DNA of 38,466 nucleotides from Clostridiales bacterium (GCA_003343815.1 QAKL01000101.1:1-38466); one strand, 5' to 3'. Shown: positions 735 through 37,380, counted from the stretch's first letter. A program made the numbers and translations. Notes: a model not told the origin generated them from the letters alone.

Positions 735-1034
735 GTGATGGTAATGCTGGAAAGTCAATTTCAAAGGCTATTGATCAAAGATCTGGAGCGGATGTTTCCG
801 GGATGTATCGTCATGAAGACAGATCCTGAGTATATCCAAGGCTTACCGGATCTTTTAATTTTATATCGCGGCAAGTGGGCGGCTTTGGAATGCAAGCGTC
901 ACATAAACGCCGCGAGGCAGCCGAATCAAGAATATTATGTGAGCAAGATGGATGAGATGGCGTTTGCACGTTTTATCTATCCGGAGAACAAAAAGGAGGT
1001 ATTGGATGAACTTCAACAAGCATTTGAATCTTGA
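735..1034 (+). CDS. VRR-NUC-like PD-(D/E)XK nuclease
   Basis: The motif GLPDLLILYRGKWAALECK gives a D...E-x-K nuclease signature typical of small phage VRR-NUC proteins. The start could be GTG 735, ATG 738 or ATG 744. Confidence 0.6.
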   Translation: MMVMLESQFQRLLIKDLERMFPGCIVMKTDPEYIQGLPDLLILYRGKWAALECKRHINAARQPNQEYYVSKMDEMAFARFIYPENKKEVLDELQQAFES

Positions 1035-1563
1035 GGGACAGCACGCTTTTTTGGGAGCGAGCAAGTATCATTGGATAAATTATGATGAGGGAAAAATCGC
1101 CGAGGCATATTCTAAATTTTTGGCGGCGCAAAAGGGGACGGAGCTGCATGAGTTTGCGGCACAGTGTATCCGTCTGGGACAAAAGCTGCCGAAATCGAAG
1201 AAGAGCTTGAATATGTATGTCAATGATGCGATCGGCTATAAGATGACGCCGGAGCAGACTTTGTTTTATTCAGAGAATTGTTTTGGGACGGCGGATGCGA
1301 TCGGGTTTCGTGATGGACTTTTGCGAATCCATGATCTGAAGACCGGGGCTACTCCGGCTAAGATGGAGCAGCTGGAAATTTATGCAGCGTTATTTTGTTT
1401 GGAATATCGGATGAAGCCGGGAGAGATCGCGATGGAGCTCCGATTATACCAAAGCGATGAGGTGATCGTCCATGAGCCGACAGTAGAAGATATTGCGCCG
1501 ATTATTGATAAGATTATCACTTTTGATAAAATTATTGCCAAAATCAAAGATCAGGAGGGGTGA
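1006..1563 (+). CDS. RecB/Cas4-like PD-(D/E)XK exonuclease (DUF2800-like, no Fe-S cysteines)
   Basis: ATG 1006 is preceded by AAAGGAGG (992-999). GTADAIGF...LRIHDLKTG provides D...D-x-K. EQLEIYAALF provides the QxxxY motif of RecB-family nucleases. It overlaps the upstream gene by 29 nt. Confidence 0.6.
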   Translation: MNFNKHLNLEGQHAFLGASKYHWINYDEGKIAEAYSKFLAAQKGTELHEFAAQCIRLGQKLPKSKKSLNMYVNDAIGYKMTPEQTLFYSENCFGTADAIGFRDGLLRIHDLKTGATPAKMEQLEIYAALFCLEYRMKPGEIAMELRLYQSDEVIVHEPTVEDIAPIIDKIITFDKIIAKIKDQEG

Positions 1564-1565
1564 AG

Positions 1566-4307
1566 ATGAATCCCATACTTGAAGATATGCTGATGCATTA
1601 CGGTACGCCGAGGCATTCGGGGAGATATCCATGGGGGTCGGGGGAGAATCCTTATCAGCACAGCGGTGATTTTTTGAGTCGTGTCGAGAGTTTGAAAAAA
1701 GAGGGTGTAAGCGAGACAAAGATTGCCGAGATGATGGGGATGTCGACGACAGAGCTGCGTGCGTATAAGTCAATCGCCAAAAACGAACGGCGTGCGGCGG
1801 AAGTAGCAAAGGCGAAAGCTCTGCGTGATGAGGGATATTCTCTGCAGGAAATCGCCGATAAGATGGGATATGCAAATGATTCGTCGATCCGCTCGCTTTT
1901 GAATGAAACCTCTGAGGCGCGAATGAATAAATCAGTCAAGACTGCAGAATTTTTGAAAAAACAGATCGATGAAAAAGGTATCGTCGATGTGGGCGCCGGG
2001 GTGGAAAAAGAACTGGGCATTTCTAAAGAAAAGCTGAATGAGGCGTTGGCGATATTGCGTGCCGATGGGTATGAGGTGTATGGCGGCGGTGTGCCGCAGG
2101 CGACAAATCCCGGAAAGCAAACTAATTTGCGTGTCGTGTGTCCGCCGGGGACGGAGCACAAAGATATTTACGATTATGAGAATATTCATCAAATCACAAA
2201 CTATACTTCACATGATAATGGCGAGACTTTTACGCCGTTTGTGTATCCGAAGAGTATGGACAGCAAAAGGTTGGCGATCCGTTATGCGGAGGATGGCGGG
2301 TTGGAAAAAGACGGTGTCTTGGAGATTCGCCGCGGAGTCGAGGATTTATCGCTTGGGGATGCGCACTATGCGCAGGTGCGTATCTTGGTCGATAATAAAA
2401 AGTATTTGAAAGGTATGGCAGTTTACAGCGATGATTTGCCGAATGGTGTGGATATTGTCTTTAACACCAATAAAACAAAAGATGTCGCAAAATTGGATGT
2501 GCTGAAGAATATCAAGGATGATCCGGATAATCCTTTTGGCTCATATATCAAGGCAAATGGGCAGAGCTATTATACTGATAAAAATGGCGAACAACAGCTT
2601 TCATTGATCAATAAGCGAGCGGAAGAGGGAGATTGGGGCGAGTGGGCGAAGAAGCTGCCTAGTCAATTCCTCTCTAAGCAGCCGAAAGCGCTGGCAGAGA
2701 AACAGTTAAAGTTAGCTGAAGCGGATAAGGTAGCAGAGTTTGAGGAGATCTGCTCGCTGACTAATCCGACGGTGAAAAAGGCGCTGCTGAAATCTTTTGC
2801 AGATGACTGCGATGCAGCAGCGGTGCATTTGCAGGCAGCGGCTTTGCCGAGACAGCGCTATCAGGTAATTATGCCGATTACTTCGATGAAAGATGACGAG
2901 GTGTATGCACCGAATTATAAAAATGGCGAAAAGGTGGCGCTGGTGAGGTTTCCGCATGGCGGTACTTTTGAGATCCCGGTGCTGACGGTAAATAATAAGC
3001 AGGCGGATGCGAAGAAGATTTTGGGTACGAATGCGCTTGACGCGGTAGGGATTAACTCGAAAGTGGCGGAGCGCTTGTCGGGTGCGGATTTTGACGGGGA
3101 TACGGTAATGGTGATTCCGTGCAATTCGTCGATGAGTAAGGTGAAAATTACTTCGACACCCCCTCTGGAGGGGTTAAAGGGATTTGACCCCAAGACGAAA
3201 TATGGTGCGGATGAGACACGAGTTGATTCCTCGGGAAAAGAGCATTATTATCGCGGTGGTAAAGAGTATCGGCAGATGAAAGCTACGCAAAAAGAGATGG
3301 GTGTGATTTCTAATCTGATTACCGATATGACTTTGAAAGGTGCGACACAGGATGAGCTGGCGAGAGCAGTACGCCACTCGATGGTGGTTATTGACGCGGA
3401 AAAGCATAAGCTGGATTACAAGCAGAGCGAGATCGATAACGATATTGCTTCATTGAAAAAGCGCTATCAAGGGCGGATCGGAGAGGACGGCAAGTACCAC
3501 GAGGGGGCATCAACGCTGATTTCGCGGGCGAAGAGCGAGGTTTCGGTGAACAAGCGGCAGGGCTCGCCGCAGATCGATCCCAAGACTGGGCGGCAGTATT
3601 GGAAAGACGCAGACAAGCTGGAATATACGGACTCTAGGGGGAGGGTGAAAAAACGCACCCAGCCCTCGACGGCGATGGCTGAGGCCGGGGACGCCCGTAC
3701 TTTGTCGTCTGGACACCCCGTCGAGGAAGTTTACGCTGATTATGCAAACAAGATGAAGTCGCTGGCGAATCAGTCGCGCAAAGAGATGTTGGCGACAGGT
3801 AAGATCGAGTACAGCGCGCAGGCGAAGAAGACTTATCGGGTGGAGTGTGATTCGCTGGATGCCAAGTTGAATGTGGCGTTAAAGAATGCGCCGCGTGAAC
3901 GGCAAGCACAGATCATGGCGAATAGTATTGTGAAAGCGAAGAAAGAAGCGAACCCTGATATGACGAAGGGCGAGGTTAAGAAGATCAGTCAGCAGGCATT
4001 GGCTCAGTCTAGGGTAAAAGTCGGCGCGCAGCGTACGCCGGTGAAGATCACGGATCGGGAATGGGAAGCGATTCAAGCTGGTGCGGTGAGCGAGAATAAA
4101 TTGACGCAGATTTTGAATAATGCAGATATGGATGAAGTGCGTAAGCGAGCGACTCCGCGGGCGACTAATTCACTTTCTGCGGGACAAATTGGTCGGATTA
4201 AGGCGCTGAAAGCGTCGGGTTACACGAATGCAGAGATCGCGGATGCTTTGGGTGTGTCGACATCGACGGTGAGTAAACATTTGACGAATGAGAGGAGTGG
4301 ACAGTGA
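1566..4307 (+). CDS. Single-chain two-barrel RNA polymerase homologue (YonO-like) with HTH modules
   Basis: ATG 1566 follows AGGAGGGG. NKKYLKGMAVYSDDLPNGVDIVFN (2397-2465) resembles the RpoB barrel (GNKGV...P..G.PVDIVLNP). VALVRFPHGG...SGADFDGDTVMVIP (2934-3119) carries the RpoC-type DFDGD metal site (3087-3101). HTH-like segments lie near nt 1700-1900 and 4183-4284. The N-terminus is HYGTPRHSGRYPWGSGENPYQ. Confidence 0.6.
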   Translation: MNPILEDMLMHYGTPRHSGRYPWGSGENPYQHSGDFLSRVESLKKEGVSETKIAEMMGMSTTELRAYKSIAKNERRAAEVAKAKALRDEGYSLQEIADKMGYANDSSIRSLLNETSEARMNKSVKTAEFLKKQIDEKGIVDVGAGVEKELGISKEKLNEALAILRADGYEVYGGGVPQATNPGKQTNLRVVCPPGTEHKDIYDYENIHQITNYTSHDNGETFTPFVYPKSMDSKRLAIRYAEDGGLEKDGVLEIRRGVEDLSLGDAHYAQVRILVDNKKYLKGMAVYSDDLPNGVDIVFNTNKTKDVAKLDVLKNIKDDPDNPFGSYIKANGQSYYTDKNGEQQLSLINKRAEEGDWGEWAKKLPSQFLSKQPKALAEKQLKLAEADKVAEFEEICSLTNPTVKKALLKSFADDCDAAAVHLQAAALPRQRYQVIMPITSMKDDEVYAPNYKNGEKVALVRFPHGGTFEIPVLTVNNKQADAKKILGTNALDAVGINSKVAERLSGADFDGDTVMVIPCNSSMSKVKITSTPPLEGLKGFDPKTKYGADETRVDSSGKEHYYRGGKEYRQMKATQKEMGVISNLITDMTLKGATQDELARAVRHSMVVIDAEKHKLDYKQSEIDNDIASLKKRYQGRIGEDGKYHEGASTLISRAKSEVSVNKRQGSPQIDPKTGRQYWKDADKLEYTDSRGRVKKRTQPSTAMAEAGDARTLSSGHPVEEVYADYANKMKSLANQSRKEMLATGKIEYSAQAKKTYRVECDSLDAKLNVALKNAPRERQAQIMANSIVKAKKEANPDMTKGEVKKISQQALAQSRVKVGAQRTPVKITDREWEAIQAGAVSENKLTQILNNADMDEVRKRATPRATNSLSAGQIGRIKALKASGYTNAEIADALGVSTSTVSKHLTNERSGQ

Positions 4308-4552
4308 TGCAGGATGCGTACAGGCTGACGACTTTCGATAATCCGTTTGACCCATTCGAGCAGTTCACTTCGTGGTTTTTGTATGATGAGGAGAAGGGTT
4401 ATCATACTTGCGCTTATTTGGGCAGGATTGCGCGGACTTCGGATGCGTTGACAGATGAAGAAAACGAGCTGGAGATCGAGCGTGCAATTGATGAGATTAT
4501 TAAGTATGATTTCAGGAATGTGTATAAGAAAGTCGCTAGAAAAGCTGTTTGA
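4304..4552 (+). CDS. Small acidic conserved phage protein, function unknown
   Basis: The ORF overlaps the RNAP stop (GTGATG). Sequence is YRLTTFDNPFDPFEQFTSWFLYDEEKGYHTCAYLGRIA. From memory this type occurs just upstream of packaging genes in Firmicutes phages. Confidence 0.45.
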   Translation: MMQDAYRLTTFDNPFDPFEQFTSWFLYDEEKGYHTCAYLGRIARTSDALTDEENELEIERAIDEIIKYDFRNVYKKVARKAV

Positions 4553-4933
4553 TTGGCGCCTATTCGGGCGAAAGATGTGGGATATGGGGGGTATGGCGAA
4601 AAACACACCCCCTGTGTTATCGCGGCGGTCTTAAAAAATTCTCCGGGGGATATTTTGGAGGAATGTGTTTTAAAAGATTGGATGCACGGATAGTAAAAAA
4701 TTAAAGCATAGGTGTGAAGTTTGAGTAAGGGTGCTTGATAGAGTTTATTAAGTCGGTACGATGTGGTATGGGGTAGCTGCGTCCTTTCATTTTTTCTCTC
4801 CTTTCGGTGATCGGCGAAAGACCGGCTTAGTAAGCTCTATCGAGTATCTTTGATGAGGAAAGGTAAAAGTGTTAAAGATGTAATAAATCATGAAACAAAA
4901 TATATTAAGCGAAAAGAAAGGAGGCTGTCGGAG

Positions 4934-5275
4934 ATGGCGCAAAGAAAAAATGCGAGTAATGTAAGTAATGCAAGTAAGCAAAAGTTTCGTCCGGCATGTA
5001 CTCCGGAGGCAAGAGAGAATCAGCTGATATCCTTGGCGGTGGATCTGGCGGAAAAGCAGCTCAGAGAAGGGACGGCATCGTCACAGGTAATCACTCACTA
5101 TCTAAAGCTGGGCTCGACGAAAGAAAAAATCGAGAAAGAGATTTTGGAGAAACAGAAAGATCTGATCGAGGCTAAAACCGAAAATTTGAAAGCGGCGCAA
5201 AGAATCGAGGAACTGTACAATAAGGCGCTGGATGCTATGAAAAGCTACAGTGGACACAGTGACGAGGATGAGTGA
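4934..5275 (+). CDS. Small basic coiled-coil phage protein, possibly small-terminase-like
   Basis: ATG 4934 lies 9 nt after AAAGGAGG (4917-4924). The segment REGTASSQVITHYLKLGSTKEKIEKE is remembered from packaging-region proteins. No clear HTH is present. The assignment is tentative. Confidence 0.3.
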   Translation: MAQRKNASNVSNASKQKFRPACTPEARENQLISLAVDLAEKQLREGTASSQVITHYLKLGSTKEKIEKEILEKQKDLIEAKTENLKAAQRIEELYNKALDAMKSYSGHSDEDE

Positions 5276-5769
5276 GCGGAGGGATATATTTGTGGCAGTA
5301 TAATTATGGGTACGGCGGTGAGCTCTATCACTATGGTGTCAAAGGTATGCGCTGGGGCGTAAGGAGATACCAAAACAAAGACGGGAGTTTAACACCAGAG
5401 GGAAAAAGTCGATATGCTATTGCGAAGCGCGCGAAAAATGGTATAATAGAAAGTAAAAAAGGATTTAGTATTCATCGAGATAAAATTGAAAAGTATATGT
5501 TAAAAGAAGGAGCTAAGCATTCACAAGATTTCTTTAATGTGGGGTACACGAAGAATGACGCAGTTAGACTTTATAAAGATATCGAACGACAGTATGATAT
5601 TAAGAAAGCAACTGGTTTTAGACAAAATGCTAATGGTTCAATTGGATACAGTATCTATATGGATTTAGGGATTATTAAGAAAAGAACATTCTGCACAGCG
5701 TGGATTATCGACGAGGATGGAGCTACTCCAAGATTAACAAGCGCATATAGGAGGGATAAGCGTGTATGA
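5272..5769 (+). CDS. HYGVKGMRWG-leader protein with DUF6883-like putative toxin C-terminus
   Basis: The start is GTG 5272, or TTG 5290 after GGAGG. The N-terminus is ELYHYGVKGMRWGVRRYQNKDGSLTPEG. The C-terminus KIEKYMLKEG..FFNVGYTKND...GYSIYMDLG...TAWIIDEDGATPRLTSAYR matches my recollection of DUF6883 (FF.LGY...Y.I.G.L...VWI...G..PR.VTAYP). Confidence 0.5.
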   Translation: MSGGIYLWQYNYGYGGELYHYGVKGMRWGVRRYQNKDGSLTPEGKSRYAIAKRAKNGIIESKKGFSIHRDKIEKYMLKEGAKHSQDFFNVGYTKNDAVRLYKDIERQYDIKKATGFRQNANGSIGYSIYMDLGIIKKRTFCTAWIIDEDGATPRLTSAYRRDKRV

Positions 5770-11619: not shown

Positions 11620-11972
11620 TCGAAAATGACAGTATATTAAATAGTATAAAGAAGCTTTGCAATATCGCCTATGATGATACACATTTCGATCGCGACATAA
11701 TCTTTCATATCAATGCGGCGCTGGGGGTACTGGCGCAAATCGGCGTCGTTGCAAAAGAGGGGATGATCATAAGCGATCAAAAATCAAAATGGACTGATCT
11801 CACAGAGGATAAGGTCATTTTGGGATTAGCGGTCGAGTATATCCAGCTCAAATGTGTGATCGTCTTTGACCCGCCGAGTGTGAGCGCGGTATTGGACGCT
11901 TATAAGGAGCGGATAAAGGAGCTAGAGTGGAGACTGCAAGAGCAGGCAGAGGAAAGTAACACGATAAATTAA
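11616..11972 (+). CDS. gp6-like head-tail connector protein (putative)
   Basis: ILNSIKKLCNIAYDDTHFDRDIIFHINAALGVLAQIGV...VFDPPSVSAVLDAYKERIKELEWRL resembles the connector/adaptor family seen in Firmicutes phages (from memory). Confidence 0.4.
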   Translation: MIENDSILNSIKKLCNIAYDDTHFDRDIIFHINAALGVLAQIGVVAKEGMIISDQKSKWTDLTEDKVILGLAVEYIQLKCVIVFDPPSVSAVLDAYKERIKELEWRLQEQAEESNTIN

Positions 11973-12886
11973 TTTAGATATTGAAGTGCTAAAGCAATTA
12001 ATGATAGACAGCGATTAAAAAAATAATCATAATATCGAATATCGTTAATATTTATTTTATCGGTTTCATGATGTCTGATACGGAAACTATTTCCAATGAA
12101 AGTTAGCGCTTTAAATTCTTCTGTGAATAGAATTTTATAGTCATCCTGTCCGCAAGACATATTTTCGATTATTTTATTTACGGATTGTTTTTTATCTAAA
12201 TCAGTGTAATATGTCTTTAATCGCTCTAATACATCCCATATTTTCTCAACTGCGTCTTTGTGGGACTGAAGATTTGGTTGCATGTGTTTTTCAATAGCTA
12301 TGTTGAATAATTCTTGTAACTCAGGTTCCGGGATTTGAGCACTCAACGAGATTATATCAGGGCTAAGCACTTCGGATAAAGCTAACTGTTCTATGAGACC
12401 GCTGTCATTGAGATTAAAGGGTATATTGTATTTTTGAAATAATGTATTAATTGCTGAACGAAAATCGAGTTTTTCTTTTGAAGATAACTCTTCATATTGG
12501 AGCTCAATTATGTCGAATAAAAATGGTGTAAAACATGCAGATAAGATCTCATAGTCGAGTGACGAATACATTTTAAATGATTTTAGATCTACAGCTGGAA
12601 CCTGAAGATATTCATTTAAGCGTTCTATAGCACATTCCAAAGCATCTGTGTATACTGTCCAATCGCTATAACGATCTGGCTGATAGCATATGGGTTCTCT
12701 AAAGTGAGATATTATTTTGCAAATGCGGTTTTTGACACTCGAATCAACAGAATAGCTAATATTGTCAGTGGGCTGACCTTGTCCATAGCTTATTAAATCT
12801 TTATAGCGTTCGGTAAAAAGGTTATCCGGGAAAAGCGATTGTATAGCGTTTACACATTTTACAGCGTTTTCAGAATTCTTGTTCAT
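11969..12886 (-). CDS. AT-rich opposite-strand hypothetical protein, candidate prophage defence/Abi-like moron
   Basis: This 305-aa ORF has SD AGGAGG upstream of its ATG at 12886. Its stop codon overlaps the stop of the convergent + gene. It is mostly helical. The C-terminus IGNSFRIRHHETD...YFFNRC is vaguely AbiJ/HEPN-like, but there is no canonical Rx4-6H. Confidence 0.4.
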   Translation of the reverse strand: MNKNSENAVKCVNAIQSLFPDNLFTERYKDLISYGQGQPTDNISYSVDSSVKNRICKIISHFREPICYQPDRYSDWTVYTDALECAIERLNEYLQVPAVDLKSFKMYSSLDYEILSACFTPFLFDIIELQYEELSSKEKLDFRSAINTLFQKYNIPFNLNDSGLIEQLALSEVLSPDIISLSAQIPEPELQELFNIAIEKHMQPNLQSHKDAVEKIWDVLERLKTYYTDLDKKQSVNKIIENMSCGQDDYKILFTEEFKALTFIGNSFRIRHHETDKININDIRYYDYFFNRCLSLIALALQYLN

Positions 12887-12981: not shown

Positions 12982-13347
12982 GTGGATGAATTGTATCACT
13001 ACGGCGTCAAGGGTATGAAATGGGGTATCAGGCGCTATCAAAACTCGGACGGGAGCTATACGAAAGCCGGAAAGAAACGACGGCGGGAGGAACATCCCGA
13101 CTATACAAATGCTCATACCAAGAAACATGTCCGCGAGATGAGTAATGAGGAGTTAAAGAGCCGCAATAATCGATTACAGATGGAAAAAACATATGAGGGA
13201 CTAACTAAAGATCAGCATATCATCGGGCTGGGGATGAAATATGTAGGTACGGCTACAGCGATAACAGGCTCGGCATTAGCTCTGTATAGTAATGCAGATC
13301 GTATCATATCCATAGGGAAAAAGGCCGCGAAGCGAACGCTAAGATAA
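12982..13347 (+). CDS. HYGVKGMKWG-leader small protein with basic middle and C-terminal hydrophobic helix
   Basis: GTG 12982 lies 9 nt after AAGGAGG. The sequence is MDELYHYGVKGMKWGIRRYQNSDGSYTKAGKKRR...MSNEELKSRNNRLQMEKTY...GLGMKYVGTATAITGSALAL. Confidence 0.55.
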   Translation: MDELYHYGVKGMKWGIRRYQNSDGSYTKAGKKRRREEHPDYTNAHTKKHVREMSNEELKSRNNRLQMEKTYEGLTKDQHIIGLGMKYVGTATAITGSALALYSNADRIISIGKKAAKRTLR

Positions 13348-13359
13348 AAGGAGATAAAT

Positions 13360-15102
13360 ATGGCACTGTCGAATACTGCTGTACCGAAATATTACGGCAT
13401 GTTTCGAGATGCCGTAATGCGTGGAGAAATTGCGATCAATCGAGAAATCGAGATGGAGATGAATCGAATCGATAATTTGATCCGTGACAAAGACATTTAT
13501 TGTGACAATACGGCGGTGGAGGGGTTTATCCGCTACTGCGAAAACGAGATGACACTGACTGACGGGGCGGATTTAACGCTGCTGGATACTTTTAAACTGT
13601 GGGCGGAGGAGATATTCGGCTGGTATTATTTCGTGGAAAAGCAGGTGTGGGAGCCGTACGAGGACGGCGGCGGCCGCTATGTGCGCAAGTGGCAGAAAAA
13701 GCGTCTGGTCAATAAGCAGTATCTCATCATCGCCAGAGGGGCGGCGAAGTCGATGTATGGCGCGTGCTTACAAAGCTATTTTTTGAATGTCGATACGACA
13801 ACGACTCATCAAATAACTACGGCGCCGACGATGAAGCAGGCGGAGGAGGTATTGGCTCCGATAAGAACGGCGATCACCAGAGCAAGAGGTCCGCTCTTTC
13901 AGTTTTTAACTGAAGGGAGCTTGCAGAATACGACCGGGAGCAAAGCAAAACGCATGAAGCTCTCACCGACCAAAAAAGGAATTGAGAATTTCCTGACAGG
14001 TTCGCTTTTAGAAATCCGTCCGATGAGTATCCATAAGCTGCAGGGACTGCAAATCAAGGTGGCGACGGTGGATGAATGGCTCTCGGGGGATATCCGAGAG
14101 GATGTCATCGGGGCTATTGAGCAGGGTGCGAGCAAAGTGGATGATTATTTAATCGTGGCAATTTCCTCAGAGGGTACGGTGCGTAACGGCGCAGGGGATA
14201 CAATCAAAATGGAATTGGCGGATATCCTCAAAGGCGAGTATGTCAATCCGCATGTGTCTATCTGGTGGTATAAGCTGGATAATATCGAGGAGGTCAACAA
14301 CCCGGCGATGTGGGTCAAGGCTCAGCCTAATCTGGGTAAGACAGTGAGTTATGAAACCTATCAGCTGGAAGTGGAAAGAGCGGAGAAAGCACCGGCAGCG
14401 CGAAATGATATTTTGGCTAAAAGATTCGGTATCCCGATGGAGGGATATACTTACTACTTTACTTATGAGGAGACGATACCGCATAAGCGAAAATCGTATC
14501 ACGGTATGGCGTGTGCGCTGGGCGGAGACTTTTCCCGAGGGGATGATTTCTGTGCATTGACCTTTTTATTTCCCTTACGAGACGGAGCGTTTGGCGTGAA
14601 AACGAGGAACTATATTTCGGCGCTCACTTATCAGAAACTCGCTCCGGCGATGCGGATGAAATATGACGAATTTATCGAAGAGGGGACGCTAATCGTAATG
14701 GAGGGGACAGTCCTCGATATGGATGACATCTATGACGAACTGGCTGGATATATCGATGAGATGGAATATGATGTGCGGTGCTTTGGCTATGATCCATACA
14801 ATGCAAATAAGTTTGTCGCTCAATTTGAGGTTGATAACGGACCGTTTGGGATTGTAAAAGTACCGCAGGGTGCGAAGACGGAATCAGTGCCGTTAGGAGA
14901 ACTAAAAAGTTTATCCGAAGAAAGAATGCTGTTATTTGACGAGGAAATGATGAGCTTTACGATGGGGAACTGTATTACTTTAGAGGATACGAATGGCAAC
15001 CGCAAACTGTTGAAAAAGCGGCATGATGCAAAGATAGACGCGGTGGCAGCGATGATGGATGCGTATATCGCGTATAAGGAAAACAAAGATGTGTTTGAAT
15101 AA
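13360..15102 (+). CDS. terL: Terminase large subunit (Terminase_1 type)
   Basis: The product is 580 aa. LIIARGAAKS is Walker-A-like and VATVDEW is Walker-B-like. The C-terminal nuclease region is GGDFSRGDDF...QGAKTESVPLGELK...KKRHDAKIDAVAAMMDA. Confidence 0.85.
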   Translation: MALSNTAVPKYYGMFRDAVMRGEIAINREIEMEMNRIDNLIRDKDIYCDNTAVEGFIRYCENEMTLTDGADLTLLDTFKLWAEEIFGWYYFVEKQVWEPYEDGGGRYVRKWQKKRLVNKQYLIIARGAAKSMYGACLQSYFLNVDTTTTHQITTAPTMKQAEEVLAPIRTAITRARGPLFQFLTEGSLQNTTGSKAKRMKLSPTKKGIENFLTGSLLEIRPMSIHKLQGLQIKVATVDEWLSGDIREDVIGAIEQGASKVDDYLIVAISSEGTVRNGAGDTIKMELADILKGEYVNPHVSIWWYKLDNIEEVNNPAMWVKAQPNLGKTVSYETYQLEVERAEKAPAARNDILAKRFGIPMEGYTYYFTYEETIPHKRKSYHGMACALGGDFSRGDDFCALTFLFPLRDGAFGVKTRNYISALTYQKLAPAMRMKYDEFIEEGTLIVMEGTVLDMDDIYDELAGYIDEMEYDVRCFGYDPYNANKFVAQFEVDNGPFGIVKVPQGAKTESVPLGELKSLSEERMLLFDEEMMSFTMGNCITLEDTNGNRKLLKKRHDAKIDAVAAMMDAYIAYKENKDVFE

Positions 15103-15142: not shown

Positions 15143-16306
15143 TCAGTCATCACCACTAGGCAATGCTTTTAAATAAAGGGCATCGCCGCTCATCAAGATG
15201 TCTACAGGCTCATTATAGATAGCGTTAATGTGGTCAATTTTTTCAGCGAATATTTGAGATTTAGTGTCTTGGCAGCTGGCAAGCGATTTGGCTGCTTTAG
15301 AAAAGTGGGCTTTGTCGGTGCTGCGTAAAGCATAGGCACCGTCAGATAAATGCTCATGAATAGGGGTTTTACGCAAAAGAGGAGTTTTTTCAAAAACTAA
15401 GGAGGCGGCGGTTCCGGCTTTAGCGACGGTCTTAATGGCGTGATGCTCCAAGGCTCGCGCAGAAAGCGCATCTAAGTGTGCGCAGGATTTCTGGTAGTAA
15501 GCGTCATATTTAGTGGATACGTCGGATATTTGCTTAGAAACAGAGGAGAGGTAACCTGAACTGCTGTAGTTTTCGGTAAAGATGACTTCGGCATAGGAAG
15601 CGAGGGCGTAAATGGAAACACAAAGGCGGTAAATCTGAAGTGGTTTGCGCAAGGAATTGGCGGCTTTGTCGATATCGCCTTTCGTAACAATGCGCTCTTT
15701 ATCGGTAAAAACTTTGTCGATTTGCTTTTGATAAAATTCTATATTCTGATAAGCTTCATTTTTAGCGTCTTGGAGCTTGACAAAAACACCGGTTTTATAA
15801 AGCTCGTTTTGGCTACTGTATTTGTAGTTGCTCAAAGCATCGTGTAAATACAGAATAGTGCCGCGTATTTTGGATTGCTTATCTGTTTCGAGGAAATATA
15901 AAAGCTGCTCTTGCATAGCGGTGATTTGGTTAAGTTGGGAAGTAACGGCGGATATAGCAGCAGAGGCGCAAAGTGTAGCCGGATTAACCGCCGAAATTTT
16001 AACCGGCTGAAAGGAAGCCTTGCCGACAAGCTTGCCGTTTTTGAAAATCATATCACGGTATCCTTGTCCGTTCAAAGATTTGGTGGATAGGCGAATTGAT
16101 TTGCCGACATCGTCTACGGCGCGGTAAAGTAATTTGTCTTTTTTGAAAAAGTTTGGTATTTCCGAAACGCCCATGCCTAAGGATGATAACTGAGCGAAAG
16201 GAATTTTCTCATATTTAGAAAGCTCGACGGTAGAATCAAGCGGAATAAGCTCAAGCTCCAAAGGAGCGAGAAAGTCATAATTTTGGGCAGCTGAAGTAGT
16301 ATCCAT
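15143..16306 (-). CDS. Opposite-strand hypothetical protein inserted between terL and portal
   Basis: This 387-aa ORF has SD AGGAG (16316-16320, minus) 9 nt from its ATG at 16306. The first ~120 aa look beta-rich, followed by a long helical region. No TM segment and no family motif were recognised. Confidence 0.5.
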   Translation of the reverse strand: MDTTSAAQNYDFLAPLELELIPLDSTVELSKYEKIPFAQLSSLGMGVSEIPNFFKKDKLLYRAVDDVGKSIRLSTKSLNGQGYRDMIFKNGKLVGKASFQPVKISAVNPATLCASAAISAVTSQLNQITAMQEQLLYFLETDKQSKIRGTILYLHDALSNYKYSSQNELYKTGVFVKLQDAKNEAYQNIEFYQKQIDKVFTDKERIVTKGDIDKAANSLRKPLQIYRLCVSIYALASYAEVIFTENYSSSGYLSSVSKQISDVSTKYDAYYQKSCAHLDALSARALEHHAIKTVAKAGTAASLVFEKTPLLRKTPIHEHLSDGAYALRSTDKAHFSKAAKSLASCQDTKSQIFAEKIDHINAIYNEPVDILMSGDALYLKALPSGDD

Positions 16307-16405: not shown

Positions 16406-16783
16406 ATGTATTATTACAATGATAAAAATAATGAATTATATCACTACGGTGTCAAAGGGATGCGTTGGGGCGTAAGAAAACATAGGGACTCTGCTTCCTC
16501 ACAAACACGCGCTCAAAGAAAAAGCGAAAAACAGGCGTATAAACAAAAATTAAAAGCTGATGTCCGTATGAATAAAAAGGGCATGATCGCGAAAACACAG
16601 GATTTTGACGTAACGACGGGACGAGCTGTCAAAGGCAGTGAGCGCTACTATAATACAATGACCGGTGAAGAATACAGCAAGGCGTATATTAAAAAGGTGA
16701 ATAAAAAAACAGCAGTATCTCAATTAAGCAAAGTCGGTATTGCAACCGGGGCATATGTAACCGCACGCTATTTAGCACATTAG
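16406..16783 (+). CDS. HYGVKGMRWG-leader small protein
   Basis: MYYYNDKNNELYHYGVKGMRWGVRKH is followed by a Lys-rich middle and a C-terminal hydrophobic segment, VGIATGAYVTARYL. Confidence 0.55.
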   Translation: MYYYNDKNNELYHYGVKGMRWGVRKHRDSASSQTRAQRKSEKQAYKQKLKADVRMNKKGMIAKTQDFDVTTGRAVKGSERYYNTMTGEEYSKAYIKKVNKKTAVSQLSKVGIATGAYVTARYLAH

Positions 16784-16801: not shown

Positions 16802-18046
16802 ATGGATTTGATGAACAGGGCAAAAAATGCCTGGAATGTATTTATGAATAAGGATCCCACCCAATCATGGCATGATTATGGGATGAGCTACAGCTATCGA
16901 CCGGATAGGCCGAGGTTTACCGGCGGTAATGCGCGGACGATGGCGACACCTATTTATAATCGGATTGCAATGGACGCAGCGGCTGTGAATATCCGCCATG
17001 TGCTGCTGGATGAAAACGGGCGGTATAAAGAGGACGTGGAGTCGGGGCTGAATAACTGTCTGAAGCTGGAGGCAAATATTGATCAAAGTGCGCGCGCCTT
17101 TATCCAAGATGTGGTGATGAGTCTTTTGGATGAGGGATGTGTGGCGATCGTGCCGATAGATACTGATCGTAATCGGCTGACAGGTGAGGTGAAAGAGATA
17201 TTCACGCTGCGGACGGGAAAGATCGTCCAGTGGTATCCGGAACACATCAAGGTGAGCGTCTATAATGACCGCACGGGGCAAAGGGAAGAAGTCATCGTCT
17301 CGAAACGAAGTGCGGCAGTCATCGAAAATCCGCTCTATGCAGTGATCAACGAGAAAAACTCGACTATGCAGAGATTAATCAGAAAATTAAGTCTATTAGA
17401 CGCGGTGGACGAGGAAAACAGTGCGGGGAAATTTAATATGATCATCCAACTGCCGTATGCAGTGAAAACAGAGACGAGACGCAATCAAGCGGAGCGCAGG
17501 CGCAAGGATATGGAGGAACAGCTCAAGCAGTCGAAATACGGGATCGCTTATGTAGACGCGACAGAGAAGATAACGCAGCTGAATCGACCGCTCGAAAACT
17601 CGCTGAATGCTCAGGTAGAGTATCTGACAAATAAGCTTTACGGCGAGCTGGGGATGACGCTAAGCATTCTCGACGGAACGGCGGATGAAAAGACAATGCT
17701 GAATTATTATTCGCGGACGATCGAGCCGATTGTCAGTGAGATCGCAATCGGGATGAAAAGAGTGTTTCTAACTCAAGCGCAGCGTGAGAATCATGAGTCG
17801 ATCGAGGTTTATCGTGATCCGTTTAAACTGGTGCCGGTGAATAATATTGCCGAGATCGCCGATAAGTTTACGAGAAATGAGATTATGACTTCGAATGAGA
17901 TCCGTCAGGTCATCGGGATGAAGCCGTCGGATGATCCGAAAGCGGATGAGCTCCGCAACAGCAATATCAGCGCGTCTAAGGAAGAAATGCAGTATATGTA
18001 TGACGATGACGGCTATGAGGAGGGAGAAAATCAAAATGGATGGTAA
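16802..18046 (+). CDS. Portal protein
   Basis: The 414-aa product lies between terL and the protease-capsid gene and has an acidic C-terminal tail. The call rests on position and size. The portal family was not identified. Confidence 0.65.
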   Translation: MDLMNRAKNAWNVFMNKDPTQSWHDYGMSYSYRPDRPRFTGGNARTMATPIYNRIAMDAAAVNIRHVLLDENGRYKEDVESGLNNCLKLEANIDQSARAFIQDVVMSLLDEGCVAIVPIDTDRNRLTGEVKEIFTLRTGKIVQWYPEHIKVSVYNDRTGQREEVIVSKRSAAVIENPLYAVINEKNSTMQRLIRKLSLLDAVDEENSAGKFNMIIQLPYAVKTETRRNQAERRRKDMEEQLKQSKYGIAYVDATEKITQLNRPLENSLNAQVEYLTNKLYGELGMTLSILDGTADEKTMLNYYSRTIEPIVSEIAIGMKRVFLTQAQRENHESIEVYRDPFKLVPVNNIAEIADKFTRNEIMTSNEIRQVIGMKPSDDPKADELRNSNISASKEEMQYMYDDDGYEEGENQNGW

Positions 18047-32679: not shown

Positions 32680-32696
32680 TAATTATCATATTGGGG

Positions 32697-32720
32697 CTCT
32701 TTCTTTGTTTAAGAAAGGAG
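32697..32720 (+). promoter_or_regulatory. Hairpin occluding the int Shine-Dalgarno
   Basis: CTCTTTCTT (32697-32705) pairs with AAGAAAGGAG (32711-32720) with one bulged G. The loop is tgttt. The 3' arm contains the SD AAAGGAG of int. Confidence 0.4.
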
Positions 32721-32726
32721 AACACT

Positions 32727-33878
32727 ATGTCTGAGAAGAGAAAGGATAATCGAGGACGAATTTTACGGACGGGAGAGAGCCAGAGAAAAGACGGAACGTA
32801 TCAATATCGCTATGCTGATATTTTTGGTACCCGGCGCTATATTTATGATGCCAATTTAAACAAGCTCAGAGAAAAAGAGAAAGATGTTCAAAAACAGTTG
32901 GATCAAGGTCTTGATTATGCGAATGGAAAGATGACTGTAGTTGGACTATATGAGCAATATGTGAGTACAAAAAGAAATACGCGCGAGAATACAAAGAAAT
33001 CGTATGCTTATTTTGCCAAAATGTTGCATAATGACACTTTTGGTAGAAAAGAAATATTAAAAGTAAAAACTTTAGATGTAAAGAAGTGGCTTATAAAATT
33101 GCACGATAGTGGATTAAGCTATGGTACTTTAAATACATTAAAAGTTGTTGTAGGCGGAGCGTTTAAAATGGCGTGTGAAGAAAATATTATTTTGAAGAAT
33201 CCTTGTGCTTTTCCGCTGAGCAGTATAATAAGCAATGATGCGAATAAAAAAGAAGTGTTGTCTTTAGAACAGCAAAAAGAATTTCTGTCTTTTGTTAGAG
33301 ATGATGCATGGGGCAGTAAGTGTTATGATATAATAGTTGTATTGTTAAACACAGGTATGAGAATAGGCGAGCTTAGCGGATTGACTATTGATGATGTAGA
33401 TTTTGAAAGACGCAGGATAAAAATAGATCACCAATTACAATATTATGATAAAAAGGGGTATACGGTTGAAAAAGCAAAATCAAAAAGCGGTAATCGGGTG
33501 ATTCCAATGAGCGACGATGTATATGATTCATTGAAGCGATTATTGAAAAAACGCAATCAAATTGAGCGAGAGTTTGATGATTATGTTTTCTTAAATCGCA
33601 ACGGACGTCCGATTAGGAGTACAACATTTTCAAATTCTTTGAGGCAAATAAGAAAAAGATATAATGAAATCCATCAAGATAATCCATTGCCGAATATTAC
33701 TCCGCATAGTTTTAGGCATATGTTTTGCTCAAACATGGTTAATGCAAAAATGAATGCAAAAATGCTGCAATACATTATGGGTCATGCTGATATTTCGGTG
33801 ACTTTAAATGTGTATTCTCATATTGATTACGATACTGTTGAGAAAAGTATGCTTGATATTTTAAACGTAAAGAATTAG
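32727..33878 (+). CDS. int: Tyrosine integrase, Tn916 Int-like
   Basis: The N-terminus MSEKRKDNRGRILRTGESQRKDGTYQYRY is nearly identical in pattern to Int-Tn916. The catalytic region shows TGMRIGEL, HSFRHMF, GHADISVTLNVYSH. ATG 32727 follows AAAGGAG. The gene is AT-rich. Confidence 0.9.
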   Translation: MSEKRKDNRGRILRTGESQRKDGTYQYRYADIFGTRRYIYDANLNKLREKEKDVQKQLDQGLDYANGKMTVVGLYEQYVSTKRNTRENTKKSYAYFAKMLHNDTFGRKEILKVKTLDVKKWLIKLHDSGLSYGTLNTLKVVVGGAFKMACEENIILKNPCAFPLSSIISNDANKKEVLSLEQQKEFLSFVRDDAWGSKCYDIIVVLLNTGMRIGELSGLTIDDVDFERRRIKIDHQLQYYDKKGYTVEKAKSKSGNRVIPMSDDVYDSLKRLLKKRNQIEREFDDYVFLNRNGRPIRSTTFSNSLRQIRKRYNEIHQDNPLPNITPHSFRHMFCSNMVNAKMNAKMLQYIMGHADISVTLNVYSHIDYDTVEKSMLDILNVKN

Positions 33879-34201: not shown

Positions 34202-35182
34202 ATGGGTAAGTTGAAAAAAGCAGTAGCTTTGGCTTTATCCGCAGTGATGTGCTTGTCTTTGGCTGCTTGCGGAGAAAAAGAAGAAGACGTGACGATGAAT
34301 ATCGCGGGACTGAAAGGACCTACGACAATGGGCATGGTTAAATTGATTGACGATGCACAAAACGGCAATACGGAAAATGATTACAATTTCACCATGGCGG
34401 GTACTGCCGATGAAATCACCCCGAAATTAATCCAAGGCGAGTTAGACATTGCCGCCGTACCGTGCAATTTGGCATCGGTTTTGTATAATAAAACCGAGGG
34501 CGGCGTGCAGATTTTGGCGGTTAATACTTTGGGCGTGCTGTATTTAGTGGAAAAGGGCGACAGCGTTAATTCGATCGAGGATTTGCGCGGCAAAACCATT
34601 TATATGACCGGTAAAGGCGCGGTTCCCGAATACACCGTACGCTATATTTTGGAGCAGAACGGTTTAACTGTCGATAGTGATGTCAATATCGAGTGGAAAA
34701 ACGAGGCTAATGAAATCGTCGCACTAATGCAGTCTACCGATGAGGATATAGTAGCTGTTCTGCCGCAGCCTTTTGCGACTGTAGCGCAGACGCAGGTCGA
34801 GGGATTGCATACGGTGATGGATTTAAACGAGGCGTGGAACGCTTTGGATAACGGCAGCCAGATCGTGACCGGTGTCATCGTGGCACGCACCGAGTTTGTC
34901 GAGAAGTATCCGAAACATGTGGAAGCTTTCCTCAAAGAATACTCCGAGTCGATTGATTATGTAGTGAATAATCCCGCTGACGCAGCAACTTTGATCGAAA
35001 ATGTAGGCATCGTGAAAGCAGCTGTGGCGGAAAAAGCTTTGCCCTACTGCAATATCACCTATTTAGACGGCGATGAGATGAAAAACGCAGTAAACGGCTA
35101 TTTGACTGTGCTTTACGAGCAGAACCCGAAAGCTGTCGGCGGTGAATTGCCGGGAGACAATTTCTACTACACCGGCAAATAA
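34202..35182 (+). CDS. ABC transporter substrate-binding lipoprotein (NMT1/THI5-like fold, ligand unknown)
   Basis: The signal peptide carries the lipobox LSLAAC-G. AGLKGPTTMGMVKL...DIAAVPCNLASVLYNK is typical of aliphatic-sulfonate/HMP-type SBPs. Confidence 0.7.
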   Translation: MGKLKKAVALALSAVMCLSLAACGEKEEDVTMNIAGLKGPTTMGMVKLIDDAQNGNTENDYNFTMAGTADEITPKLIQGELDIAAVPCNLASVLYNKTEGGVQILAVNTLGVLYLVEKGDSVNSIEDLRGKTIYMTGKGAVPEYTVRYILEQNGLTVDSDVNIEWKNEANEIVALMQSTDEDIVAVLPQPFATVAQTQVEGLHTVMDLNEAWNALDNGSQIVTGVIVARTEFVEKYPKHVEAFLKEYSESIDYVVNNPADAATLIENVGIVKAAVAEKALPYCNITYLDGDEMKNAVNGYLTVLYEQNPKAVGGELPGDNFYYTGK

Positions 35183-35373: not shown

Positions 35374-37380
35374 ATGAAGGTGTTTGAAACTAACAAAATT
35401 CGCAATGTCGGCATCACAGCCCACGGTGGTGCGGGGAAGACTTCACTGACTGAGTCATTGATCGCTACCTGTCGCGGTACGCGTTTGGGCAGAGTGGACG
35501 ATGGCACCACCGTGACGGATTATCTGCCGGAGGAAATTAAACGCAAAGTTACCATTTCGACCGCGATGTCTCCGGTTGTGTGGCAGGATTACAAGATCAA
35601 TCTTTTGGATACGCCGGGATATTCGGATTTTATCGGCGATGTGATCAGCACGATCGCGGCGGTAGACAGTCTGGTCATGGTTGTCTGCGGCGTTTCAGGA
35701 CCTGAGGTGCAGACGGATGTCGTCTGGGATTACGCCCAAGAAAAAGGTATGCCCCGTATGTTTGTCGTGAATAAATTGGATCGTGAACATGCCTCCTTTG
35801 AAAAGGTTTGGGTGGAACTGCAGGAGCACTACGGTCCGGAGGTCATCCAACTGCATATCCCGATCGGCGAGGAGGAAAATTTCCGCGGCTTTATCGATGT
35901 AATCTCGCATAAGGCTTACGAATTTGACGGAGATAAATTAAAAGAAATCCCGGTGCCGGAGGATCTGAAGATTTTACTGGTAGAGAAATGCTCGACTTTG
36001 ATTGAAGCGGTGGCCGAAGTCGATGATTATGTGATGGAGAAATATTTGGAGGGTGAGGAGATCTGCGAGCAGGATATAGCGCGCGGATTCCGCCAAGGAA
36101 TCAAGCTCGGCAAAATATTCCCTGTATTGTGCGCCAGCGCGATCAATAATAAAGGCGCGGTGCCGATTTTAGACGCGATCATCAAATATTTCCCGGAGCC
36201 CAAGGTCGAGGACGGAGCGAATAAAGCCTTTGTCTTTAAAACAGTAGCCGATCCTTTTGTCGGCAAAATGAGTTTCCTGCGTATTTTGAGCGGTAAATTC
36301 AAATCAGGCGAAACTTTGTATAATGTCAATTTAGGTAAAGAAGAAAAAATCGGCAATCTTTTAACTTTATCCGGCAAAACGCAGGATACTTTGACCGAGG
36401 CAAATGCCGGCGATATCGTCGTGATCGCCAAATTGCAGGAAACGAAAACGGGGCATACCTTGACGACGAAGGGCAGTACGGTCGAGCCTGTATCTGAAAT
36501 AGCTTTCCCTGTGCCTAATCTCACGATGGCAGTTTCTCCGAAGAGCCGCGGTGATGAGGATAAAATGGGCAATGCGTTAGCTCGCCTTTTGGAAGAAGAT
36601 CCGACATTGCGCTCGGGAAAAAATAACGAAACGAAAGAGCAGCTTTTAAGCGGGATCGGCGATATGCATTTGGATATAGTTGCCGAGAGATTTAAAAATA
36701 AATTCGGGGTGGATATTGTTTTAAAAGAGCCGAAGATCCCTTATCGCGAAACGATTAAGAAAAAAGTCGAGGTGCAGGGGCGTCACAAAAAACAATCCGG
36801 CGGCGCAGGACAGTTTGGCGATGTATGGCTCAGGATAGAACCGTATAAGGACGGCGATTTCCTTTTTGGTGAGGAGGTATTCGGCGGAGCGGTGCCGAAA
36901 AACTATTTCCCCGCAGTCGAAAAAGGTGTAGTAGAGGCGATGCGCGAGGGTATCTTGGCAGGGTATCCGGCGACTAATATCAAGGTTACCTTATACGATG
37001 GTTCCTATCATCCGGTAGACTCTAACGAAATGAGTTTTAAAATCGCAGGGGCGTTAGCATTCAAAAAAGGCGCGGAAATGGCTAATCCCGTGATTTTGGA
37101 GCCTATTATGAATTTAACCATAAAAATTCCCGAGCAGTATTTAGGTGATATCATGGGCGATATCAACAGCCGCCGCGGTCGTATTATGGGGATGGATCAT
37201 GAGGGCAAAATGCAGATCATCGAGGCACAGGCACCTATGGCGGAATTAGTGAAATACGCGATTGATCTGAAAGCGATGACCCAAGGACGCGGCAGTTATT
37301 TGAGCGAGTTTGACCATTACGAAGAAGTACCGGCGAAAATAGCCGAAAGTATCATCGCGGCTCATAAAAATAAAGCTTGA
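35374..37380 (+). CDS. Elongation factor G paralogue (EF-G-like translational GTPase)
   Basis: G1 is AHGGAGKTS, G3 is DTPGYSDF, G4 is NKLD. The 668-aa product has EF-G domain IV/V-like regions (HKKQSGGAGQFG). SD AAAGGAGG is present. Confidence 0.8.
   Translation: MKVFETNKIRNVGITAHGGAGKTSLTESLIATCRGTRLGRVDDGTTVTDYLPEEIKRKVTISTAMSPVVWQDYKINLLDTPGYSDFIGDVISTIAAVDSLVMVVCGVSGPEVQTDVVWDYAQEKGMPRMFVVNKLDREHASFEKVWVELQEHYGPEVIQLHIPIGEEENFRGFIDVISHKAYEFDGDKLKEIPVPEDLKILLVEKCSTLIEAVAEVDDYVMEKYLEGEEICEQDIARGFRQGIKLGKIFPVLCASAINNKGAVPILDAIIKYFPEPKVEDGANKAFVFKTVADPFVGKMSFLRILSGKFKSGETLYNVNLGKEEKIGNLLTLSGKTQDTLTEANAGDIVVIAKLQETKTGHTLTTKGSTVEPVSEIAFPVPNLTMAVSPKSRGDEDKMGNALARLLEEDPTLRSGKNNETKEQLLSGIGDMHLDIVAERFKNKFGVDIVLKEPKIPYRETIKKKVEVQGRHKKQSGGAGQFGDVWLRIEPYKDGDFLFGEEVFGGAVPKNYFPAVEKGVVEAMREGILAGYPATNIKVTLYDGSYHPVDSNEMSFKIAGALAFKKGAEMANPVILEPIMNLTIKIPEQYLGDIMGDINSRRGRIMGMDHEGKMQIIEAQAPMAELVKYAIDLKAMTQGRGSYLSEFDHYEEVPAKIAESIIAAHKNKA

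Follow-up and report, generated by a model that had tools for sequence, protein, structure and literature searches.

A prophage-encoded homologue of single-chain, two-barrel RNA polymerases with helix-turn-helix modules at both ends

Can one phage polypeptide hold both the catalytic core of an RNA polymerase (RNAP) and the modules with which to find its promoters? The question is raised by a gene at positions 1566-4307 of a 38,466-nt stretch of DNA from a Clostridiales bacterium (GCA_003343815.1, QAKL01000101.1:1-38466), the whole of which is hereafter called the window. A preliminary description, made from the nucleotide sequence, had taken this gene to encode a prophage single-chain, two-barrel, YonO-like RNAP homologue with fused helix-turn-helix (HTH) modules. 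Upon closer analysis the observation was confirmed and the interpretation is supported as one of homology and architecture, and from both we infer the function, namely transcription for the phage.

The gene and its start can be placed as follows:

1566-4307, plus strand: gene of the single-chain two-barrel polymerase with fused HTH modules, stop codon included, 913 aa, called from its open reading frame (ORF), its ribosome-binding sequence and PHROG 4291

As had been described, the interval is occupied by one gene, a single ORF that closes with the stop codon at 4305-4307. A mechanical ORF list opens the frame at GTG 1560 (1560-4307, plus strand); the true start is almost certainly ATG 1566, judging from the sequence context, since an AGGAGG lies at 1553-1558, 7 nt upstream of this codon, the TGA of the upstream gene occupies 1561-1563, close homologues begin with MNPI, and a 99%-identical cluster (P0001) is 913 aa long. 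Residue numbers are nevertheless counted here from GTG 1560, in the 915-aa translation, so that 2 has to be subtracted for the protein beginning at ATG 1566.

The assignment is carried by the core of the protein, with these features:

2271-2474, plus strand: beta-like double-psi beta-barrel (DPBB-B), residues ~238-305, called from model strands and invariant residues
2310-2312, 2379-2381 and 2409-2414, plus strand: key residues of DPBB-B, respectively D251, R274 and K284-G285
2685-2828, plus strand: two long inter-barrel connector helices, residues 376-423, called from the AlphaFold secondary structure
2856-3122, plus strand: beta-prime-like barrel (DPBB-A), residues 433-521, called from invariance in 268 of 268 homologues and pairing with the YonO-family profile
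2946-2954 and 3087-3101, plus strand: key residues of DPBB-A, respectively R463 with P465 and the metal-binding D510, D512 and D514
3285-3467, plus strand: conserved helices past the catalytic loop, MGxxSNLITDM...HSMVVIDAEKH, residues 576-636, a candidate bridge-helix region

The structure was predicted with AlphaFold from an alignment to 37 homologues of 40-88% identity. The model obtained (predicted local distance difference test score, pLDDT, 77.5; predicted template modelling score, pTM, 0.62) displays two beta-rich modules, at residues 238-305 and 433-521, with two long helices between them, the strands of the former module running over residues 238-241, 253-257, 270-277, 281-290 and 299-302. 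This agrees with the layout proposed in the preliminary description, a beta-like barrel followed by a beta-prime-like one, YLKG...GVDIVFN being succeeded by VRFPH...SGADFDGD ~226 aa further on. The segment VALVRFPHGG...SGADFDGDTVMVIP at 2934-3119 and its DFDGD at 3087-3101 are exactly where they had been reported; the beta-like segment NKKYLKGMAVYSDDLPNGVDIVFN is also present, although it is encoded by 2394-2465, one codon earlier than the start at 2397 that had been given for it. By their position in the model, the helices of residues 376-423 would correspond to the clamp connector that the paper on the P23-45 polymerase describes in QDE-1 and gp66.

Conservation was evaluated in 268 distinct family members from two bacterial phyla, down to ~40% identity; ~80 of them were retrieved with the patterns GADFDGD and HSMVVID and are thus biased for these two motifs, while the 150 representatives contributed by a phmmer scan are free of that bias. 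R274, K284, G285, D298, R463, P465 and S507-D514 (SGADFDGD) are invariant throughout the set, so that both the KG and the DFDGD motifs, whose conservation had been proposed as a check, are fully kept, and D251 is found in 266 sequences. Past the catalytic loop, M580, G581, N585, D589, D612, K615 and H616 are invariant as well, and residues 576-636 align in profile-profile comparison with IGxISN...IDxAKT of the YonO family.

An eight-residue signature has been defined for two-barrel RNAPs, represented in QDE-1 by D709, R738, K743, R962, P964 and D1007/1009/1011, with R446/P448/D479-483 as the Rpb1 counterparts (Ruprich-Robert and Thuriaux 2010, PMC2919709). Its counterparts here are D251, K284, R463, P465 and D510/D512/D514. 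For the second basic residue of the signature (QDE-1 R738, Rpb2 K979) the candidate is the invariant R274, which faces K284 in the predicted hairpin, 10 rather than 5 residues before the lysine.

The structural resemblance to double-psi-barrel polymerases, also proposed as a check, is borne out by Foldseek. Among the best 50 of 80 matches in the PDB, QDE-1 stands out (7y7q_B, E 7.9e-8, probability 1.0; also 7y7r_A), together with plant RDR2 (E 7e-6 to 6e-4), all of them with probability 1.0, and weaker matches to Rpb1 and bacterial beta-prime come after these. In BFVD, a collection of predicted viral structures, the matches are other phage 'RdRP' proteins (RdRP, RNA-dependent RNA polymerase) and RlpA-type single-barrel proteins. 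Taken together, sequence comparison and the predicted model support regarding the protein as a two-barrel (double-psi beta-barrel) RNAP homologue of the branch that comprises QDE-1/RDR and YonO.

Its kinship with YonO itself is of a looser kind than 'YonO-like' conveys. In tblastn searches of a phage collection YonO did not return the family of the window protein, nor did the latter return YonO, and hhalign of the family profile with the single YonO sequence gave no match. A YonO-family profile of 7 members was built for profile-profile comparison. At full length it aligned over the beta-prime-like barrel (E 6e-4, probability 29%), pairing R463/P465 with YonO R492/P494 and D510-514 with D535-539; with the cores only, over 343 columns, the alignment improved to E 1.5e-4 and a probability of 52%, pairing YLKG with the invariant WvKG and MGxxSN...IDAEK with IGxISN...IDxAK. 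K284-G285 thereby aligns with K271-G272, invariant in the YonO family, and D251-G252 parallels YonO D249-G250. When the beta-like barrel was compared alone, only five residues aligned (YLKGM with WVKGL). From the tblastn searches, in which neither family returned the other, and these weak alignments that nonetheless pair the motifs, the two appear at sequence level as sister families within one superfamily and not as a single family; 'YonO-like' therefore holds at superfamily level and fails in the strict sense.

The core is enclosed by HTH units at both ends of the chain:

1659-1793, plus strand: HTH unit N1, residues 34-78, matching C1 in hhalign (probability 96.2%, E 2.7e-9)
1785-1925, plus strand: HTH unit N2, residues 76-122, matching C1 (probability 97.5%, E 6e-12) and N1 (96.2%) in hhalign
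1977-2147, plus strand: small alpha/beta unit, residues 140-196, composed in the model of helix, helix and beta-hairpin
4161-4304, plus strand: C-terminal HTH unit C1, residues 868-915, recognised by Pfam HTH_38, HTH_23 and Sigma70_r4_2

The two N-terminal HTHs and the single C-terminal one that had been pointed out are thus all real, C1 lying above the Pfam thresholds and N1 and N2 matching C1. The three are mutually homologous (hhalign probability 96-97.5%, E 3e-9 to 6e-12), and N1 is modelled as helices 38-47, 52-58 and 63-90. The unit of residues 140-196 resembles N1 (probability 75%) and C1 (32%) weakly in hhalign, and might possibly be a degenerate fourth HTH of the winged type. Regarding a likeness of C1 to sigma-70 region 4, Sigma70_r4_2 passes its own cut-off (29.1 bits versus 25.7) yet is outscored by the generic HTH_38 (44.5 bits, E 1.3e-11) and HTH_23 (38.5 bits). 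C1 is then best described as a generic tri-helical HTH by its profile scores, and the promoter recognition in the manner of sigma region 4 that had been suggested is hypothetical.

Considering these features, we hold it moderately probable that the protein is the catalytically competent single-chain DNA-dependent RNAP of its phage, finding promoters through its own HTHs, with late genes as the most probable targets. A phage transcriptase is the best reading because the catalytic signature is invariant and because YonO is proven to be an RNAP that is DNA-dependent and requires its Asp triad; it is processive and transcribes the late operon (Forrest et al. 2017, PMC5467207). The active site would lie between the two barrels of the one polypeptide, an arrangement largely shown by sequence and model, where the beta-prime-like barrel would contribute R463, P465 and the Mg-binding D510/D512/D514, and the beta-like barrel K284, its hairpin neighbour R274 and D251. 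Its product would be RNA and not DNA, and its template DNA. The three paralogous tri-helical HTHs would bind duplex DNA in a sequence-specific manner and, being fused to the enzyme, could allow it to find promoters without a separate sigma-like factor. Late structural genes are the most probable targets, as for YonO in SPbeta, since the gene, like yonO, immediately precedes them in the same orientation once the genome is circular or integrated.

The genomic surroundings on which this last point relies are the following:

735-1034, plus strand: VRR-NUC-type endonuclease, a conserved upstream neighbour
952-1563, plus strand: RecB/Cas4-type exonuclease, a conserved upstream neighbour (PHROGs 93 and 3953 cover the pair, 735-1563)
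4304-4552, plus strand: conserved 82-aa protein whose gene overlaps the polymerase stop codon (PHROG 4303, E 2e-35)
32691-33878: integrase, after the structural genes
34202-35182: host-type NMT1/THI5-like substrate-binding protein, beyond the integrase
35374-37380: EF-G paralogue, host-type, beyond the integrase

The polymerase is the last large gene of a replication and recombination module, and it is followed by the small ORF, a gap of 297 bp and then the co-oriented structural genes: HNH endonuclease, large terminase, portal, protease/capsid, tail genes and a tape measure of 1931 aa. The order nuclease, RecB exonuclease, polymerase and small protein is kept in Arthrobacter phage Nason and in gut metagenome relatives, a small gene similar to the 82-aa one following the polymerase in all relatives examined; Koert et al. 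(bioRxiv 10.1101/842583) reported the same neighbour order. The right prophage boundary probably lies at ~33.9-34.2 kb, given the host-type genes beyond the integrase and a drop in G+C to 0.37 at 32-34 kb. It follows that the window covers the right-hand portion of an integrated prophage, so that the prophage label holds, and this agrees with ~70%-identical copies inside chromosomes and assemblies of Clostridia (Hungatella hathewayi, [Ruminococcus] torques, Blautia faecis, Clostridium leptum and many Lachnospiraceae). Within the structural module, otherwise one-directional, two minus-strand genes stand apart, at 11969-12886, with a weak match to the AbiJ N-terminal domain below the Pfam cut-off, and at 15143-16306, with no match, both of them possibly cargo of the moron or defence type.

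In 32 related contigs, several of them 47-70 kb long and two of them complete phage records, the DNA ends 93-683 bp past the polymerase stop codon, which leaves a single gene between the polymerase and the physical right end. A conserved element, ATAGGGGGGGGGTC, 4 nt, AAAA, 3 nt and CACCCCCT, lies 10-25 nt from that end in phages from Arthrobacter phage Nason to Lactococcus phage P162, and it was located at the ends of L001, L002, L008, L046, L050, L054, L058, L066, L070, L073, L077 and L086. The window holds an internal copy at 4581-4612, as expected for a prophage. This pair of G-run and C-run is probably part of the cos/terminase site; a hairpin formed by it was rejected, its fold not being significant (z -1.8). 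The last 40-70 bases of the public IMG/VR contigs L047 and L042 (AGATCGGAAGAGCACACGTCTGAACTCCAG; CTGTCTCTTATACACATCTCCGAGCCCACGAGAC) are presumably untrimmed sequencing adapters.

Ahead of the HTH units the protein carries a further conserved segment, related to the heads of other phage proteins:

1596-1643, plus strand: N-terminal motif HYGTPRHSGRYPWGSG, residues 13-28, called from conservation and from hhalign to DUF7211
5272-5769, 12982-13347 and 16406-16783, plus strand: DUF7211-headed proteins, with the 25-aa ELYHYGVKGM[KR]WG(VRR), called by Pfam

The motif, which begins at 1596 as had been given, conforms to a nearly invariant consensus, HYGxPRxSGRYPWGSG, of which H13, G15, S20, G21, R22 and P24 are invariant in the 37-homologue alignment and kept in nearly all of the 268 sequences, even though residues 1-36 have pLDDT <50 and are disordered in the model. 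Its description as a degenerate copy of a HYG..WG leader holds, for hhalign aligned it with DUF7211 (probability 78.7%, E 1.7e-5) with a score of 22.9, versus 4.8-11.3 for 30 column shuffles. Moreover, when the DUF7211 hidden Markov model was run on 8353 six-frame ORFs, the polymerase N-termini ranked just beneath the genuine members and ahead of nearly every other frame. Of 36 related loci with enough downstream sequence, 35 encode 1-4 further proteins that begin with DUF7211 (in relative L004, at 14705-15085 and 16866-17318), and the genes of these proteins typically flank the large terminase gene on both sides, one of them adjoining or preceding the portal gene. The C-termini vary, with DUF6883 in the window and a polymorphic-toxin-type glutamine deamidase (PF15644) in two relatives. 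A DUF5662 protein of 314-345 aa, encoded in relatives 8-11 kb upstream of the polymerase (4224-5168 in L004, with equivalents in L005, L007, L013, L020 and L027), contains an internal motif of this kind (HHGVKGQKWGVKNGPPYP), whose occurrence is thus not confined to N-termini. A literature search on DUF7211 and the motif strings found no paper. The sequence pattern suggests that the motif is a shared targeting or docking peptide.

Proteins of this kind have already been described computationally, and the idea of a polymerase with terminal HTHs is thus not new. The protein of Lactococcus phage 1706 forms one of five YonO-like families (Ruprich-Robert and Thuriaux 2010, PMC2919709), and that of the supercluster of phage 1706, Faecalibacterium phage FP_oengus and actinobacteriophages was treated by Koert et al. 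(bioRxiv 10.1101/842583; reviewed via PCI Genomics), who reported HTHs at both ends, a DxDGD loop and, with a family alignment, an HHpred match to PF05183 with a probability of 95.7%, and who proposed RNAP activity. The window protein matches PHROG 4291 ('RNA-dependent RNA polymerase') with 1333.8 bits, residues 3-910 being aligned with a profile of 909 positions, both HTH ends included. In tblastn of the phage collection, the alignment spans 80% or more of the query in 249 of 250 records, the best match being 54.5% identical, and the phmmer scan delivered 1003 clusters at 50% identity with E 1e-30 or better. Names in databases are less consistent. Most GenBank records call the homologues 'helix-turn-helix DNA-binding domain protein', since standard profiles recognise nothing but the HTH, some JGI records use 'structural protein', an unexplained automatic label, and NCBIfam has no model for the polymerase core and none for DUF7211. 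The label 'RNA-dependent RNA polymerase' can mislead, as a Streptomyces phage protein so named, probably a homologue of the window family, was discussed as an RNA-virus replicase (PMC13587820, FEMS Microbes 2026).

A number of points weigh against the protein being a working DNA-dependent transcriptase of late genes. The RdRP family PF05183 is matched at residues 501-617 with 16.3 bits, below the gathering cut-off of 23.8 (E 0.004), and searches of PDB sequences, with the protein by phmmer and with the family profile by hmmsearch, retrieved HTH proteins only and no polymerase; sequence-only methods are too weak to link the protein to the PDB polymerases. The equivalence of R274 with QDE-1 R738 relies on the hairpin geometry of the predicted model, and the YonO arginine aligns 5 residues before the lysine, in a column that has no basic residue in the window family. 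QDE-1 uses both RNA and DNA templates, and template choice cannot thus be read from homology. In virions the genome ends separate the polymerase from the structural genes, so that it is directly upstream of them only after circularisation or in the prophage. No repeated promoter-like motif was detected in the intergenic regions of the window, direct and inverted repeats and shared 10-mers among 13 of these regions being only AT-rich low-complexity words; a sigma-70-type promoter scan is uninformative for a phage polymerase. Finally, neither biochemical nor transcriptomic work on a family member came to light in the searchable literature.

Other functions have then to be weighed. The enzyme might be an early transcriptase packed into the virion by means of its DUF7211-like motif, ejected with the DNA and transcribing the first phage genes, on the model of the virion RNAPs of crAss-like phages (gp66), N4 and P23-45, the same motif marking other cargo proteins; we regard this as unlikely. 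The motif is the most conserved non-catalytic feature of the protein, is disordered in the model, exceeds all shuffles in its similarity to DUF7211, and recurs near terminase and portal on proteins with variable C-termini, two with a toxin domain. Capsid-packaged toxins with a MuF fusion show such a pattern, one N-terminal module being joined to varied C-termini. Furthermore, related genomes carry the gene last but one before their physical right end, the end that lambda-type phages inject first, and the JGI name 'structural protein' would fit. However, the similarity spans just ~10-27 residues, the co-occurrence with DUF7211 is hard to separate from the common descent of these phages, the JGI name was assigned automatically, and the literature on FP_oengus, phage 1706 and other members yielded no virion proteomics. 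The model is moreover that of an ordinary globular multi-domain enzyme, in contrast to the flat, clampless P23-45 gp96, whose flatness and missing clamp were proposed to permit tail passage in the P23-45 paper. A self-sufficient minimal transcription machine with sigma-like HTHs that is also loaded into the capsid through a DUF7211-type peptide and ejected with the DNA is in our judgement unlikely. If it were true, the DUF7211 motif would be a hitherto unrecognised capsid-targeting or ejection signal in a phage lineage spanning Actinobacteria and Firmicutes, a peptide common to variable cargo proteins, those with toxin domains included.

An RNA-templated or priming enzyme, making primers for replication or recombination at genome ends, or else regulatory double-stranded or antisense RNA, is suggested by the database label 'RNA-dependent RNA polymerase', by the RNA-silencing polymerases being the closest solved structures among the matches listed, and by the position of the gene at the end of the replication and recombination module beside the VRR-NUC nuclease and the RecB-type exonuclease; part of the C-terminal region also resembles weakly small-terminase-type DNA-binding proteins (PHROG 309, E 5e-5). 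Nonetheless, a replication role is not needed because phage Nason encodes a separate DNA primase/polymerase and a helicase, and a primase hypothesis was downgraded on account of that primase/polymerase. In addition, three HTHs of the duplex-DNA type are better suited to promoter DNA than to RNA, YonO and crAss-like gp66, the phage members of this branch that have been characterised, are DNA-dependent transcriptases, and there is no known bacterial RNA-silencing pathway to use such an enzyme (PMC2919709), all of which makes this function very unlikely. That the protein is no working polymerase, being a large HTH regulator or DNA-binding protein with a decayed core, or alternatively a PolD-like DNA polymerase, is highly improbable. 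Such a view could appeal to the HTH name in most deposited annotations, to the lack of an NCBIfam core model and to PolD having the same two-barrel core (PMC7708050). Yet that name only reflects what standard profiles detect, the catalytic signature is kept across 268 sequences of two bacterial phyla (D251 in 266), which is unexpected for decay, and PolD chains are not among the Foldseek PDB matches listed. A DNA-dependent transcriptase with its own HTHs thus continues to be the preferred reading.

Single-chain two-barrel RNAPs offer a rare view of a possible ancestor of cellular RNAP, and few of them have been studied, among these YonO, crAss-like gp66, P23-45 gp64/gp96 and QDE-1. If the HTHs of the window family indeed conferred promoter specificity, the protein would amount to a compact transcriptase of cellular type that needs no additional factor, of use in minimal-system studies of initiation and as an orthogonal expression tool, and it would provide a natural contrast to YonO-type enzymes, which have a separate HU-like protein.

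Compared with known systems, YonO of SPbeta (PMC5467207) is alike in being a single chain of 839 aa, versus 913 here, that is prophage-borne, with a similar motif spacing (D249/K271/R492/P494/D535-539 versus D251/K284/R463/P465/D510-514) and with its gene upstream of and co-oriented with morphogenesis genes. Unlike the window protein, it is without the HYG...WG N-terminus, and no HTH modules were detected in YonO relatives in Pfam-type searches. On the other hand, a separate HU/IHF-like gene lies 1-2 genes downstream of the polymerase in all six YonO-family loci examined, as listed here:

L003, 15834-16112 (yonN)
L088, 4439-4726
L089, 4580-4870
L090, 5844-6200
L092, 5939-6214
L093, 4561-4869

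These neighbours may act in trans as the equivalent of the HTH modules that are fused to the polymerase in the window family.

QDE-1 of Neurospora and plant RDR2 (PF05183), the closest structures among the PDB matches listed (E 8e-8 to 6e-4), share with the window protein two barrels per chain, the DxDGD loop and the lack of a beta-flap insert, whereas sequence identity is 10-13% and their role is in silencing and not in phage gene expression; these eukaryotic enzymes are not known to carry fused HTH modules. The crAss-like phi14:2 gp66 and P23-45 gp64/gp96 are likewise single-chain two-barrel RNAPs of phages and need no cellular subunits. They are absent from the PDB matches listed, and crAss-like matches in BFVD are weak, with E 0.18 or worse; in contrast to the window protein they are far larger or fused to tail proteins, and for them virion delivery is demonstrated.

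The closest likeness is with the phage 1706/FP_oengus/actinophage supercluster (clusters BI, AM, AU, AW, DJ, CC and EL), whose proteins match at full length through PHROG 4291 and are 38-54% identical over at least 98% of the length in the 249 phage records, with the same HTHs at both ends, DxDGD loop, gene neighbours and genome-end position. The window copy differs in residing in an integrated prophage, with an integrase, of a gut host of Clostridia type, none being annotated in the examined regions of Arthrobacter phage Nason. Beyond the account of Koert et al., the present analysis adds the mutual homology of the three HTHs, the invariant N-terminal motif and its link with DUF7211.

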